Virus record (IMG/VR): IMGVR_UViG_2645727901_000013
From: a virus
Taxonomy: Duplodnaviria; Heunggongvirae; Uroviricota; Caudoviricetes
Length of the DNA: 12,231 nucleotides
Reading direction: 5' to 3' (one strand)
Shown: piece after piece, positions 7,230 through 12,231 of the stretch
Numbering within the stretch: position 1 is the first letter of the stretch
How the letters are laid out: each line of letters starts with the position of its first letter
The notes under the pieces: generated by a model
Seen by the model: the letters and a program-made list of their open reading frames with translations, nothing else
What the model was told of the DNA's origin: nothing
Databases searched by the model: none
Program-made: the position numbers and the translations under genes

Positions 7230-7420
7230 GGACGCACCTCCGCCGTAGTTACGTATTTAACCGGGCTACCTTTCATTGAGATGGTTTCACACATCTCTGC
7301 CGCTTTCAGTTCCGCTGTTTTTCTGGATTTATAGCGACGGTGCCAGACAGATACATCCGTGCGAACTGATACATCGTTTCTGTATTCCGTAGTGGAGATG
7401 ATGATTTCGTAACTAATCAT
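7226..7420 (-). CDS. Hypothetical protein (64 aa)
   Basis: Track ORF; start overlaps the stop of the Rha-like gene (7417-7420). No recognisable motif. Confidence 0.45.
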   Translation of the reverse strand: MISYEIIISTTEYRNDVSVRTDVSVWHRRYKSRKTAELKAAEMCETISMKGSPVKYVTTAEVRP

Positions 7421-8265
7421 GGGCGAACCTCCTTGTCAGAACCATTCAGCCTGGAATCAACAAGTGCAGCGCCAAAAACAGCATCACCAACACGGTCGTA
7501 CAGTTTGCTAGCCAGCGGAGATTCAACGGCCTTAAGCATTGGATAAAGCTGGCTTGTCCAGATTTGATGGATTTCACGCAAATGCAGGTATACGCCTCTG
7601 GCGTTTCGTGCGACAGCTGACATATCAACCGCGTCAGCACCAGATAAATTCTTCTCCATCTGGTTAAAGGCGTTGATGTATGCCTCTTTGAACCGGGCTG
7701 CACGTTTGCCAGTAAAGCCCATAGCAAGGAACGCGAAGCCATCGCGGGTGATTTGATAGCAAGGTAGTTTGCGGCCTGTGCAATCGGTGTAATCACTGGG
7801 CTGAAAATTCAGCTCAGTGAATTCAACAGAGCACTCAAGCGTCTGGATTTTTTGAATAACGTTTTTGTGCTGCTTGCAGAAATATTCGGCAACGGCCAAA
7901 GAAGAGGTAACAGCCTTCCCATGGATAACATCAATTTTAGAGTGAGTTTGGGTAGGGGTGGTTGCCATAGTGACATCCTCATGTGCGAATTTTGAAAACT
8001 CACCACATGGGACGCCAATCACAGAGGTGGTGAGACGTACAGGGTTGGCGTAACCGGTCGCACATGACCCCGGCGCATCTTTCGATGCCCCTGCACGCCC
8101 CACCATAATTTGGATGTGAGGAAACGTGCGCAAAAAAACCGCTGAAGCGCGGTTATGCGCATGTGCGAATTTCAGGACGCCAATCCCGGCACCCGCTTTA
8201 TAAGGTGCGGAGACAGTGTAACGTCCCGAAATTGCAGAATCAATATTTGGTCTTGAAATGATCAT
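7417..8265 (-). CDS. Phage regulatory protein, Rha family (N-terminal start uncertain: 8265 or internal ATG at 7963)
   Basis: Central region GKAVTSSLAVAEYFCKQHKNVIQKIQTL…YQITRDGFAFLAMGFTGKRAARFKEAYINAFNQME matches the Rha-domain pattern as I recall it. The ATG at 7963-7961 (MATTPTQ…) has a good GAGGAT Shine-Dalgarno 7 nt upstream, whereas ATG 8265 has none. However, the frame is open from 8265 and contains an in-frame internal repeat, so the long form cannot be excluded. Confidence 0.7.
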   Translation of the reverse strand: MIISRPNIDSAISGRYTVSAPYKAGAGIGVLKFAHAHNRASAVFLRTFPHIQIMVGRAGASKDAPGSCATGYANPVRLTTSVIGVPCGEFSKFAHEDVTMATTPTQTHSKIDVIHGKAVTSSLAVAEYFCKQHKNVIQKIQTLECSVEFTELNFQPSDYTDCTGRKLPCYQITRDGFAFLAMGFTGKRAARFKEAYINAFNQMEKNLSGADAVDMSAVARNARGVYLHLREIHQIWTSQLYPMLKAVESPLASKLYDRVGDAVFGAALVDSRLNGSDKEVRP

Positions 8266-9368: not shown

Positions 9369-9501
9369 AACAAAGCACCAATATTAACTTTATAAATCAA
9401 GAATACATCAAGTTTAAATTAACATGCAAGTTACAAAAGGATCGAATACACTAAAATCAAGTAAAGATTTATCCTTGTAAAGAAACCCACAGGATTTGGT
9501 C
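9369..9501. promoter_or_regulatory. Immunity switch region (OR-like) between divergent cro-like and cI-like genes, with repeated ATCAAG-containing motifs
   Basis: Seen in sequence: AAATCAAG at 9394-9401 and 9454-9461, ATCAAGTTTAAATT at 9407-9420, ATCAAGTAAAGATT at 9456-9469, GAATAC at 9401-9406 and 9443-9448. Individual promoters and operator boundaries could not be resolved by eye. Confidence 0.5.
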
Positions 9502-10191
9502 ATGAAGAACGTCAAAAACACGGAAAATCGAATAGCCGCGATGCTGAAAGCAAAAGGATGGACTCAGGCTCAACTGGCCCGCAAGTTAGGTGTGAGTGCG
9601 CAATCAGTGCAGTACTGGACAACAGGAAAAACATTTCCACGGAGTGATAAGCTCGCGCATTTATCAGAGATTAGCGGTTATCCACAATCCTGGTTCTTAG
9701 GTGAAGACTCCTCACCAACCTTTTCCTCGCAAGAGAAACACCAGACAAGAACAGATAGCGTCGTATTTAATGTCCTTGATGTTGAGTTTAGTTGCGGTGA
9801 TGGAACTCATGTCCGTGGTGACTTGATAGATGTAGTGCGCTCAATAGAACTTGATCCTGAATATGCCCGACGTCTTGTTGGAAATCGGGCATTCAAAAAT
9901 ATAGAAATAGGTAACGCCAGAGGAGACAGTATGGCTCCCACAATCTCACCTGGCGACCTTCTTTTTCTTGATAAGACAGTAACTTATTTTGATGGCGATG
10001 GTATTTATGCATTTTGTTTTGATGGAGAATGCTACGTGAAAAGGCTTCAAAAAATTGGAAGCAAAATCATGGTGTTATCTGATAACCCCAATTATCAACC
10101 ATGGAGCATCGAAAAAGAGGGGTTAGCTCTGCTTTATATCCAGTCTAAAGTGATCTCATCAGTACCATTCAACATAAACAGATTTGGTTAG
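9502..10191 (+). CDS. CI-like prophage repressor: N-terminal XRE-type HTH plus C-terminal S24 (LexA-like) autopeptidase domain
   Basis: HTH: KGWTQAQLARKLGVSAQSVQYWTTGKTFP. S24 catalytic Ser in GDSMAPT and Lys in YVKRL; candidate Cys-Gly cleavage site in EFSCGDG (as in UmuD). ATG at 9502 has AGGAT 6 nt upstream; the track start at 9496 is a TTG. Followed by a strong terminator. Confidence 0.9.
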   Translation: MKNVKNTENRIAAMLKAKGWTQAQLARKLGVSAQSVQYWTTGKTFPRSDKLAHLSEISGYPQSWFLGEDSSPTFSSQEKHQTRTDSVVFNVLDVEFSCGDGTHVRGDLIDVVRSIELDPEYARRLVGNRAFKNIEIGNARGDSMAPTISPGDLLFLDKTVTYFDGDGIYAFCFDGECYVKRLQKIGSKIMVLSDNPNYQPWSIEKEGLALLYIQSKVISSVPFNINRFG

Positions 10192-10202
10192 TCTTTGATT
10201 TT

Positions 10203-10225
10203 AACGGGCTTTGCCCGTTTTTTTT
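10203..10225 (+). terminator. Rho-independent terminator downstream of cI-like gene
   Basis: Seen in sequence: AACGGGC (10203-10209), loop TTT, GCCCGTT (10213-10219), T-run of 8 (10218-10225), 12 nt after the cI stop. Confidence 0.8.
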
Positions 10226-10255: not shown

Positions 10256-10284
10256 TTGACAGCCTGTTTCCCAAAACATAATAT
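10256..10284 (+). promoter_or_regulatory. Near-consensus sigma70 promoter driving the accessory cassette downstream of cI
   Basis: Seen in sequence: TTGACA (10256-10261), 17-bp spacer, TAATAT (10279-10284). An ATCAAGTTATAATT-like motif (reverse orientation, 10294-10307) just downstream resembles the OR motif at 9407-9420, so repressor control is possible (inference). Confidence 0.55.
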
Positions 10285-10337
10285 CGCACCATCAATTATA
10301 ACTTGATTTGATTCAATTTAAAATTGTTGGCGGATAT

Positions 10338-10886
10338 ATGAAGACACTAAAAGCAACTCCAGAAACAACTAATTTTATCAACTGCGGCTGTGTTACGCTT
10401 AAGGGCTTAGAACTTGATTCCTTTGCATTAAATATTGCAAATTTGCTAAGTGCTGTACGCACATTCCATCTTCTGGATTGTGCTCGCTCAAAGGAACTGG
10501 GCATTGAGGTAATGGAATTTATCCATGAATATGCTCTATCTGCTGCTTCTCCTGCACAACAAAAACAATCCTTCCCTGAAAGCTGGCTGGTTAACCTTCG
10601 CACCCAACGCGAAGCCTGCGGCTTAACAACCGCCGAACTCGCCAGGCTGCTCGATCTCGATGAAGAAATTATCATCCAGTGGGAGAGCGGAGAGTATGAA
10701 CCAACTATCAGTATGCTTATCCCACTGGCAAATATTCTTGGCTGCGATCCGATGTGCCTGTTAACTGGTGAGGTTACTCCTCCGGAGCAACCAAAAAGTG
10801 AGGAGCAGCAACACCATGACGCATCTCAACAAGTTTGCCCCTTATCTCGCGAAGCTCTTCTGCGGAAGAACCAATACCAATGGTGA
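10338..10886 (+). CDS. Two-domain protein: unknown N-terminal domain plus C-terminal XRE-family HTH
   Basis: C-terminal LRTQREACGLTTAELARLLDLDEEIIIQWESGEYEPTISMLIPLANILGCDPMCLLTGE is a textbook Cro/CI-type HTH_3 segment. I prefer ATG 10338 over the track's TTG at 10308. The last ~35 codons overlap two other ORFs, so the 3' end is uncertain. N-terminal ~95 aa unassigned. Confidence 0.6.
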   Translation: MKTLKATPETTNFINCGCVTLKGLELDSFALNIANLLSAVRTFHLLDCARSKELGIEVMEFIHEYALSAASPAQQKQSFPESWLVNLRTQREACGLTTAELARLLDLDEEIIIQWESGEYEPTISMLIPLANILGCDPMCLLTGEVTPPEQPKSEEQQHHDASQQVCPLSREALLRKNQYQW

Positions 10887-11014
10887 CATAATCGCCGCTT
10901 CGCCCTTCAAGGTACATGCGAACATTTTTATCAATCATTGCGGAAACAGTCTCAATATGAAAACACTTCTGAGACTCGCTATATAGCAGAACATATAAGT
11001 CAGCTGAGGAAGCC

Positions 11015-11380
11015 ATGAAAAAGTTCGAAAACATAACTGTTCTCCATGTTGATGACTTTGATTATACAAACCCGGAACTTCTCCCGGAGGTTGTAAAGGC
11101 AATGGATGTTGCCGATATAGTGATTAGAGAAAAGAGAATTGTCAAAAACAGGCTCGCATGCACTTCAGGAGCAATGACAGAAACAACCTCACAGCAAGAT
11201 AATTACGAAGGCATTTGTCTGGAGCCTGATTCATTTGCGGTAAATGTTTATCATTTATTGCATGCAACACAGGTATTACATATGTCCAGTAATCACGAAA
11301 CGAAAACACTCGGCAGCGAAATTCTGAGTTTTGCATGTGAGTATACAAAAGCTGCTGCCGAAAAAGAATTAGCGCAATAA
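11015..11380 (+). CDS. Hypothetical acidic protein (121 aa)
   Basis: ATG at 11015 preceded by GAGGAAG with about 4-nt spacing; frame open for 121 codons in an AT-rich region. No recognisable motif. Confidence 0.55.
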   Translation: MKKFENITVLHVDDFDYTNPELLPEVVKAMDVADIVIREKRIVKNRLACTSGAMTETTSQQDNYEGICLEPDSFAVNVYHLLHATQVLHMSSNHETKTLGSEILSFACEYTKAAAEKELAQ

Positions 11381-11458
11381 CAACAAATATGCCCTGAACG
11401 TTTATTGCGGTTTTATCGCCGGGGATTGTTACAACCTTAATCCACAGGAGGCTTTATT

Positions 11459-11572
11459 GTGACTTTTATAAAGAATATGGCATCACACAAGACCGCCTGC
11501 CTTATTGCACAATACGGTGAAAATTACATGCATATTGCCTGCTTATTTCTGCGTAAAGCATACGGGAGATAA
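11459..11572 (+). CDS. Candidate small ORF (37 aa, GTG start), not in the supplied track
   Basis: Seen in sequence: consensus AGGAGG (11446-11451), 7-nt spacer, GTG at 11459; translation (V/M)TFIKNMASHKTACLIAQYGENYMHIACLFLRKAYGR; TAA at 11570-11572, 2 nt before the next gene's ATG at 11575. Could be a small protein or leader peptide. Confidence 0.3.
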   Translation: MTFIKNMASHKTACLIAQYGENYMHIACLFLRKAYGR

Positions 11573-11574
11573 TA

Positions 11575-11763
11575 ATGCATCAGAAAACAGCAGAACACGA
11601 ACAAACCAGAATATTGCTGACCATCAAAAACGGGAAAGTAATATTCATTCTCCATGTTCATGACGATGAACTTGTAGGAACTCTTTCAACATTCCTGTTT
11701 ATTGCAGAAAAGGCAGGATATGACGTTATTGCACCAGCAGATGAAGATGAAGATGAGGAATAA
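11575..11763 (+). CDS. Hypothetical small protein (62 aa) with polyacidic C-terminal tail (ADEDEDEE)
   Basis: ATG at 11575 with GGGAGA 5 nt upstream; stop 5 nt before the next gene's ATG. No recognisable family. Confidence 0.5.
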   Translation: MHQKTAEHEQTRILLTIKNGKVIFILHVHDDELVGTLSTFLFIAEKAGYDVIAPADEDEDEE

Positions 11764-11768
11764 ATATC

Positions 11769-12143
11769 ATGCAATACGATGAATTCCAGGCTGAAGCAAC
11801 AGCCAATGGTATACGAACTGGCAGTATGACGATTGATTATCACGACGCCATACGTCGTCTGGATGCCGGAGAATTCGATACTCCTAATGTGCGAGGTTTA
11901 CGTATCCTTCAGTGTCTGGCGCAAGCCGACGAAGCAGGATTACTGGGTAAACTTCCGGTTGAGATGAAGGTTGCTCAGTGGCGATGGTTGTATGTGACGA
12001 CATTCATCAACGAAGAAGAAGACAAGAACGGCACAATTGATATCCTGAATGAACACGGAACAACTGAACACGCCGTGGTATATAACGGGATGTATGGGTT
12101 TATGACGATATATCCCGGCCCCATTCGATTTGCCTTACGGTGA
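11769..12143 (+). CDS. Hypothetical protein (124 codons as read); 3' end interrupted by the IS1 insertion, so likely truncated
   Basis: ATG at 11769 with GAGGAA upstream. The final codon CGG (12138-12140) and the TGA stop (12141-12143) are built from the first bases of the IS1 terminus (GGTGATG…), so the native C-terminus is unknown. Confidence 0.5.
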   Translation: MQYDEFQAEATANGIRTGSMTIDYHDAIRRLDAGEFDTPNVRGLRILQCLAQADEAGLLGKLPVEMKVAQWRWLYVTTFINEEEDKNGTIDILNEHGTTEHAVVYNGMYGFMTIYPGPIRFALR

Positions 12144-12231
12144 TGCTGCCAACTTACTGATTTAGTGTATGATGGTGTTTTTGAGGTGCTCCAGTGGCTT
12201 CTGTTTCTATCAGCTGTCCCTCCTGTTCAGC
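12139..12231 (+). mobile_element. IS1 insertion sequence, left (insA-proximal) terminus; element continues beyond the window
   Basis: 12139-12231 reads GGTGATGCTGCCAACTTACTGATTTAGTGTATGATGGTGTTTTTGAGGTGCTCCAGTGGCTTCTGTTTCTATCAGCTGTCCCTCCTGTTCAGC, which matches the IS1 left end (terminal inverted repeat GGTGATGCTGCCAACTTACTGAT and start of insA) as I recall it. Recognition from memory; no alignment run. Confidence 0.85.
12194..12231 (+). CDS. insA: IS1 InsA, N-terminal fragment (continues beyond the window)
   Basis: GTG at 12194 followed by GCT TCT GTT TCT ATC AGC TGT CCC TCC TGT TCA = (M)ASVSISCPSCS, the known InsA N-terminus with its CxxC zinc-finger start. Confidence 0.8.
   Translation, partial: MASVSISCPSCS

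Follow-up and report, generated by a model that had tools for sequence, protein, structure and literature searches.

The closest described counterparts of the gene analysed here are the very small early proteins of lambdoid phages. CIII (54 aa) and Kil (47 aa) of phage lambda are tiny early proteins that act by binding protein partners. The small protein described below resembles them in being tiny and predicted to be helical, and in belonging to what looks like a repressor-controlled leftward early operon, with the immunity region on one side and the recombination/int end on the other. As for CIII and Kil, its expression would be expected after induction or infection only. Unlike CIII and Kil, it is shorter still, has no detectable similarity to characterised proteins or curated families, and gives no indication of a target such as FtsH or FtsZ; its motifs, MTFIKD and LRKAYGR, are unique to its own family.

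A described phage with a comparable arrangement is the Stx2e phage phiP27 (NC_003356), whose genes L08, L07 and L06 have the same order as their counterparts here, at 72 to 77% nucleotide identity. We analysed a 12,231-nt stretch of DNA, IMG/VR virus record IMGVR_UViG_2645727901_000013, which we refer to as the window. Its 62-aa protein is 49% identical to phiP27 L07, and the small ORF that precedes the 62-aa gene is also present in phiP27, within the L08-L07 "intergenic" gap. Unlike the window as described here, phiP27 carries no annotation for the small ORF, and its L07 protein lacks an acidic tail and ends in ...PPAKEQTL.

Genomic setting of the small gene

Positions 10900-12138 of the window are 100% identical to a prophage of E. 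coli O55:H7 RM12579 that is integrated next to mlrA (yehV). The order on the plus strand is a cI-type repressor, a terminator, a strong promoter-like site, an HTH protein, an L08-like gene, the small ORF, an L07-like gene and an L06-like gene (Table 1). In the reference prophage, the L06-like gene is followed by Ea22-like genes, xis and int. Repeats of the form ATCAAG(T)/ACTTGAT occur at 9396-9470, in the cro-cI intergenic region, and at 10288-10330, just past the promoter-like site; these are candidate OR and OL operators of this immunity type. The promoter-like site and its repeats probably drive the operon that contains the small gene, and the gene anatomy places the small ORF in what looks like a repressor-controlled early-left operon.

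Table 1. Positions of the features discussed, numbered from the first letter of the window
Feature	Coordinates	Strand	Remarks
cI-type repressor	9496-10191	+	HTH and S24 peptidase
cI terminator	10203-10219	+	downstream of cI
Probable early-left promoter, TTGACA-17-TAATAT	10256-10284	+	consensus match
Probable promoter and operator-like region	10256-10330	+	ATCAAT/ACTTGAT repeat matches
HTH protein, phiP27 L10-like	10338-10886	+	
L08-like gene	11015-11380	+	121 aa; phrog_5451
Leader hairpin, CGGT-TTTATC-GCCG	11408-11421	+	stem 11408-11411 / 11418-11421
Shine-Dalgarno AGGAGG of the small gene	11446-11451	+	7 nt before GTG
Small protein gene	11459-11572	+	37 codons, GTG start; product MTFIKNMASHKTACLIAQYGENYMHIACLFLRKAYGR
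GGGAGA	11564-11569	+	Gly36-Arg37 codons of the small gene; predicted Shine-Dalgarno of the 62-aa gene
62-aa gene	11575-11763	+	phiP27 L07 family, phrog_340; tail ...APADEDEDEE ends at 11760
(GAT GAA)n repeat for the DEDEDEE tail	11740-11760	+	varies among close relatives
5' part of phiP27 L06 / phrog_1515 gene	11769-12143	+	next cistron; 124-codon ORF

The neighbouring genes were assigned by profile matching. For the L08-like gene, PGAP calls the C-terminal 68 codons alone (from 11174); the longer start is probably right, because the 121-aa ORF matches phrog_5451 over residues 1-121 of 121 (E=4e-83). A domain is shared between the HTH protein, in its N-terminal ~50 residues, and the L08-like protein, in its C-terminal ~50; both hit phrog_4587 and phrog_5451. 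The L06/phrog_1515 gene is cut by an IS1 end at about position 12139; its intact homologue in RM12579 has 193 aa and matches phrog_1515 at E=3e-90. The IS1 terminal sequence (~12139-12231) alone accounts for thousands of E. coli matches to the window.

Elsewhere in the window, two Rfam families scored above the gathering score, the C4 antisense RNA (75 bits) and isrK (62 bits), at 8023-8110 and 8132-8221 on the minus strand, and there was a weak match to the c4-a1b1 target as well. All lie inside or next to a Rha/anti-repressor-type gene (7417-8265, minus strand), which suggests that this prophage controls an anti-repressor operon by antisense RNA in the manner of P1/P7.

Conservation and coding status of the small ORF

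An earlier sequence-only reading of the window had singled out AGGAGG, a 7-nt spacer and a GTG codon as the start of a 37-codon ORF that ends 2 nt before the 62-aa gene, and all of these coordinates were confirmed. The spacer, CTTTATT, occupies 11452-11458; the GTG codon begins at 11459, and the stop codon, TAA, is at 11570-11572. AGGAGG occurs four times in the window, against 3.35 copies expected, and three of the four lie 4 to 7 nt upstream of ORF start codons. Since this count is not above chance, the motif alone proves nothing, and the case for the gene rests on its relatives.

Related loci came from DNA and tblastn searches and from scanning IMG/VR, and a set with one genome for each species, for a sequence pattern. 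In all 111 of them the small ORF has an intact frame, start and stop; together they carry 40 distinct alleles. Close and distant relatives alike were free of stops and frameshifts, so that the frame conservation on which the earlier proposal depended was borne out. (One of the 111 loci is a Gly-to-Glu variant that falls outside the search pattern; its frame is intact, and it is counted.) The alleles range from 32 to 38 codons, and every indel among the 40 is a multiple of three. A purine-rich, Shine-Dalgarno-like motif (GGAGG, GGAG, GAGG or similar) stands upstream of the start in most relatives, and the start codon is mostly ATG; a few of the most divergent loci have a weak motif alone.

The pattern of substitution is that of a protein-coding gene. 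Comparison with the window allele gives saturation at synonymous sites (pS 0.7-1.0) and a pN of 0.14-0.35, and pairs without saturation give dN/dS of 0.06-0.25. The consensus of the family is MTFIKDKxAYKTAxLxAxxG(xx)YxxIAxL(F/Y)LRKAYG(R/K), and purifying selection covers the entire peptide, the N-terminal MTFIKD included. Because the frame is intact at 111 of 111 loci and under strong purifying selection, the ORF exceeds what chance would produce. On this comparative record, the 37-codon ORF is a genuine conserved small-protein gene that standard annotation has missed.

The gene is distributed widely among enterobacterial phages and prophages. Carriers in Escherichia include Stx1a, Stx2a and Stx2d phages, phiP27, ASU11 and phi467; Salmonella Fels-1 and Cronobacter ENT39118 are further phage carriers, and prophages carry it in Citrobacter, Trabulsiella, Phytobacter, Pseudocitrobacter, Atlantibacter, Kosakonia, Buttiauxella, Raoultella, Superficieibacter and Pantoea. 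IMG/VR holds 387 relatives, and the gene is present in 340 of 5426 complete E. coli genomes. The description of the ORF as unannotated is right for RefSeq/PGAP, which leaves the space between the two flanking genes of the O55:H7 RM12579 prophage without a CDS, and for the Fels-1 copy. It does not extend to a few GenBank phage records, in which the ORF appears as a "hypothetical protein" (PhiR49_2 XSB43068.1, Stx1a phage BCI49047.1, SaltyDalty and EKP1).

Sequence and predicted structure of the small protein

The small protein matched no family in Pfam, NCBIfam, PHROG or PADLOC. A search of a 5.8-billion-protein collection, for which the query was the small protein plus five upstream in-frame residues, returned seven clusters. 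An exhaustive HMMER search over 1.84 billion representatives gave 19 hits, most of them stand-alone relatives of 34 to 40 aa. The remainder were three truncated or fused relatives and a set of long proteins matched in multiple stretches; we took the long proteins as noise, the one inspected being an ankyrin-repeat protein. A profile search of the PDB yielded at best a non-significant hit to a designed TPR protein (E=0.12), and Pfam gave no TPR hit in the small protein. E. coli K-12 Qin proteins YdfA, YdfB and YdfC, considered as homologues because of a DicA-like neighbour, proved unrelated in sequence. We found no papers on the peptide motif or on the small ORF. The family thus appears new to curated libraries, without homology to any characterised protein.

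The peptide is basic, with a net charge of +4. AlphaFold2 (AF2), working from a shallow alignment, modelled residues 2-35 as one continuous helix (pLDDT 75.6), which includes the invariant Gly20.

Gene order in the cassette

To describe the surroundings of the small gene we compared 28 diverse loci. The order in these is leader hairpin, small gene, an optional phrog_8959 gene (~67 aa), an optional phrog_1737 gene (~119 aa), phrog_340 (the family of the 62-aa protein) and, further on, phrog_1515; an optional S24-only "CI-like" gene or another ORF can stand between the hairpin and the small gene. Which gene comes next after the small ORF varies by prophage: it may be phrog_340, phrog_1737 or phrog_8959. 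In most lineages it is phrog_8959 or phrog_1737, and one or two genes usually separate the small gene from the 62-aa family. The small gene abuts the L07 homologue in the window because both middle genes of the cassette are absent there. Members of the small-gene and L07 families occur together in 22 of the 28 loci.

The two genes had been proposed to form a two-component small-protein module. Their adjacency is not conserved, and genes of three different families follow the small gene, which removes the basis of that proposal. As judged from gene order, the small gene and the 62-aa gene have a cassette in common, and their pairing in the window is a local accident and not obligate, since the next gene can belong to any of three families. 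Nor does the pair look like a type II toxin-antitoxin system: adjacency is not conserved, and neither protein has a TA domain.

Several loci have further features around the small gene. Cronobacter ENT39118, Fostie and a Kosakonia prophage carry the S24-peptidase-only "CI-like" gene (128-131 aa) between the hairpin and the small gene, at 2118-2608 in locus L012, 2112-2608 in L013 and 2109-2599 in L106; in all three, its stop overlaps the small-gene start (ATGA). In Citrobacter prophages (L098, L099 and L100, at ~2480-2500), a poly-G tract of 6 to 10 G lies directly upstream of the small-gene ATG, and a database protein, P0153 (127 aa), consists of the upstream ORF fused in frame to the small protein. 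These two observations could reflect slippage-dependent fusion or variation in the Shine-Dalgarno sequence. In two loci, a ParE-like toxin gene (PF24732, E=1.6e-17) directly follows the L07-family gene and overlaps it by 29 nt (L008, 2055-2460; L009, 2043-2448); some proteins of the phrog_340 family might therefore have a toxin as their partner.

The 62-aa protein and its acidic tail

The 62-aa protein matches phrog_340 over residues 2-61 (E=4.2e-21), and divergent relatives match the same family at 1e-26 and 2e-25. A profile search retrieved 475 relatives; every one is short (76-104 aa among those listed), and nearly all come from enterobacteria. Weak hits to the C-terminal parts of two PHROGs labelled "anti-repressor" (E about 1e-4) may be treated as a lead, not as a finding. 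The AF2 model (mean pLDDT 67.5) shows a beta-hairpin (residues 12-28) and a helix (residues 37-46); confidence is low for the final ~12 residues, tail included. The model is consistent with a separate small beta-beta-alpha domain protein of the same cassette.

The acidic C terminus had been read as a possible sign of a DNA-mimic or anti-restriction protein, and its behaviour among relatives speaks against that. Among relatives more than 90% identical, the tail ranges from ADEDEE to ADEDEDEDEDEDEDEDEE, with one to seven DE units. This (DE)n tail is confined to a single clade. The more distant homologues have no acidic tail, and their C termini read AKEQTL, ...TDSNSNT, ...KEVMR and other sequences. 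Net charge is likewise not conserved, running from +3 to -9 across the L07 family, with the window protein at -9. Among nearly identical prophages, the (GAT GAA)n tract behaves like a coding microsatellite.

Database comparisons agree. Neither protein has a Pfam, PADLOC or PDB hit that would link it to DNA mimicry, anti-restriction or antitoxin function, and the 62-aa protein shows no sequence or structural similarity to DNA mimics of the Ocr/ArdA type. DNA mimicry is therefore not supported, because the tail is a hypervariable (DE)n tract in one clade only. It is best explained as a slippage-prone and probably dispensable appendage.

One homologue carries the UniRef name DUF905 (PF06006), and we rejected this assignment for the 62-aa protein. 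An hhalign comparison with YkfF gave a probability of 0.3%, and PF06006 had no hit in the window protein, in three divergent relatives derived from the loci or in five database homologues, the so-named one included. YkfF itself matches DUF905, which is the YkfF/YpjJ family, at 4e-43.

The junction between the small gene and the next cistron

Translationally coupled cistrons of bacteria and phages are known for stop-start juxtaposition and for a downstream Shine-Dalgarno sequence inside the upstream ORF, and the small gene resembles them in both respects. In the window, 2 nt separate the small-ORF stop from the ATG of the 62-aa gene (11575). At most of the distinct stop-start junctions examined among relatives, and with members of all three downstream families, the stop is followed by the next ATG within 1 to 6 nt, or the two genes overlap.

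Codon usage at the end of the gene points to a second constraint. GGG encodes the terminal Gly in 37 of 40 alleles, while every one of the four Gly codons occurs at the invariant internal Gly20; AGA or AGG encodes the terminal Arg in 22 of 26, against CGT or CGC in 35 of 40 at internal Arg32. The terminal codons are thus constrained to GGG AGR, and GGGAGR is thereby retained as the Shine-Dalgarno sequence of the next gene. By this comparison of codons, the end of the small gene is in dual use at the nucleotide level, its terminal codons doubling as the predicted ribosome-binding site of the downstream gene. This dual use makes coupling by termination and reinitiation plausible.

Unlike classic coupled cistrons, this locus lacks support for an SD-masking structure as a feature of the family. 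A 12-bp hairpin that would bury the downstream Shine-Dalgarno sequence is predicted in the window (11543-11555 / 11561-11572). Across relatives, its covariation is not above that expected from column composition, and the site is no better sequestered in the real alleles than in synonymous recodings of them (median rank 0.49; Fisher p=0.095). Coupling by SD unmasking is therefore unsupported, with neither covariation nor selection at synonymous sites in its favour. The downstream gene has a good Shine-Dalgarno sequence of its own and may not depend on the small gene.

A conserved hairpin in the leader

The leader upstream of the small gene contains a conserved 36-nt element (11402-11437) that consists of a hairpin followed by GGGGATT..CAACC. 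The hairpin lies 37 nt upstream of the small-gene start in the window, and in some loci another ORF separates the two by 300-460 nt. Its four pairs are 100% paired in 17 diverse leaders, with compensatory double changes at all four (e.g., GC in 9 and AU in 8, or GC in 11 and CG in 5, of the 17 loci), and RNAalifold independently predicts the same 4-bp helix. An RNA helix is favoured over a DNA palindrome because G.U wobbles occur on the plus strand of the hairpin. A covariance model of the element (R1) finds exactly one hairpin per locus, on the plus strand and at the head of the cassette. Rfam has no match in 11381-11763, even at E<=1. A second possible leader helix, GGATT/AATCC (11424-11428 / 11440-11444), is 74% paired across relatives and was set aside.

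Other readings of the leader were tried and rejected. As a sigma-70 promoter, it shows no convincing hexamers by eye, and a promoter scan had no hit there; as a sigma-54 promoter, also judged by eye, its GG/GC spacing is off by one, and the GC element is absent in Fels-1. No consistent match to an IHF site was seen by eye.

The element resembles a lambda-type nut site in that its hairpin is small and conserved, shows compensatory changes and stands in an early-left leader. Unlike lambda nut boxB, it has a 4-bp stem with a 6-nt U-rich loop in place of a GNRA-like pentaloop, and unlike a lambda nut site, it is ~1.1 kb away from the putative promoter. Inspection by eye of the aligned leaders showed no boxA upstream of the hairpin. 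In the 29-kb stretch of the reference prophage, a scan found no second copy of the hairpin, and the gene annotations include no N-type antiterminator. With a single copy in the 29 kb scanned, the hairpin is not one of a nutL/nutR pair. Its possible roles include those of a translational operator and of a processing or stability element, and a small covarying hairpin of this kind offers a candidate regulatory element.

Discussion

Taken as a whole, the evidence makes it likely that the small-protein gene is the first cistron of a conserved cassette, within a probable repressor-controlled early-left operon, in enterobacterial (Enterobacterales) lambdoid prophages of the phiP27/Fels-1/HK97 type; its peptide would act in trans, and translation would be handed over to the next cistron. 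The gene would be expressed from the early-left promoter after prophage induction. The AGGAGG/GTG site would then drive the output of both the peptide and the 62-aa protein, with ribosomes that finish the small gene reinitiating at, or passing to, the ATG 2 nt downstream. By analogy with CIII and Kil, the basic, predicted all-helical 37-mer would act through a protein partner.

The main competing explanation is that the ORF is a cis-acting leader uORF which, together with the hairpin, controls translation or stability of the downstream genes by arrest or coupling and has no function in trans. It accounts for the position of the small gene, invariably the first ORF to follow the structured leader or a single inserted gene, and for the way the gene abuts the next start at most junctions, with a Shine-Dalgarno sequence embedded in its last codons and a rare AGA/AGG codon directly before the stop. 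We nevertheless consider it unlikely, as purifying selection on the whole peptide, including N-terminal MTFIKD, exceeds what coupling requires, and the locus shows neither an attenuator or terminator nor a selected SD-masking structure. The peptide is also kept where the hairpin is 300-460 nt away with another gene between. A variant that combines the hairpin and the basic 37-residue peptide into an RNA-peptide regulatory unit, in which the peptide binds the hairpin or arrests and so gates translation or stability of the early-left cassette, strikes us as highly improbable; if true, it would represent a kind of miniature regulator so far undescribed in lambdoid phages. That the ORF is a chance one, lying over a conserved noncoding RNA or DNA element so that its conservation is not protein driven, is scarcely credible. 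The ORF is short, callers mostly skip it (seven clusters in the 5.8-billion-protein collection), and the neighbouring leader is itself a conserved noncoding element. Against this, changes are concentrated at synonymous sites, Gly20 is invariant while using four codons, codons vary at conserved Leu, Ala and Lys, indels are in frame, start and stop are kept at all 111 loci, and the regional fold energy is unexceptional (z=0.21).

The earlier proposal of a dedicated module, with the acidic-tailed protein as a DNA mimic, an anti-restriction protein or a chaperone-like antitoxin, we regard as very unlikely. The genes do belong to one conserved cassette and are found together at 22 of 28 loci, they lie 2 nt apart in the window, the window protein has a net charge of -9, and at two loci a ParE-like toxin gene follows and overlaps the L07-family gene. 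Most lineages, however, have phrog_8959 or phrog_1737 next to the small gene; the tail is a (DE)n tract of one to seven units among proteins more than 90% identical and is replaced by unrelated tails elsewhere; sequence searches of Pfam, PADLOC and the PDB gave no hits, and structure comparison no matches; and the ParE-like neighbour is confined to one lineage. The anti-restriction and DNA-mimic reading of the acidic tail is accordingly withdrawn.

The small-protein gene that we favour is a solid annotation correction of a familiar kind, a small early phage protein, and not a surprising system. It shows how pipelines overlook a gene despite one of the strongest initiation signals of its region, and it is a clean example of terminal codons that would serve also as a Shine-Dalgarno sequence. 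As no function follows from the data, it is useful in practice mainly as a candidate to include when small proteins are screened in studies of Stx-phage induction. For the phages themselves, it adds a widespread, essentially unannotated small-protein family to the early genes of Stx-converting and related prophages.
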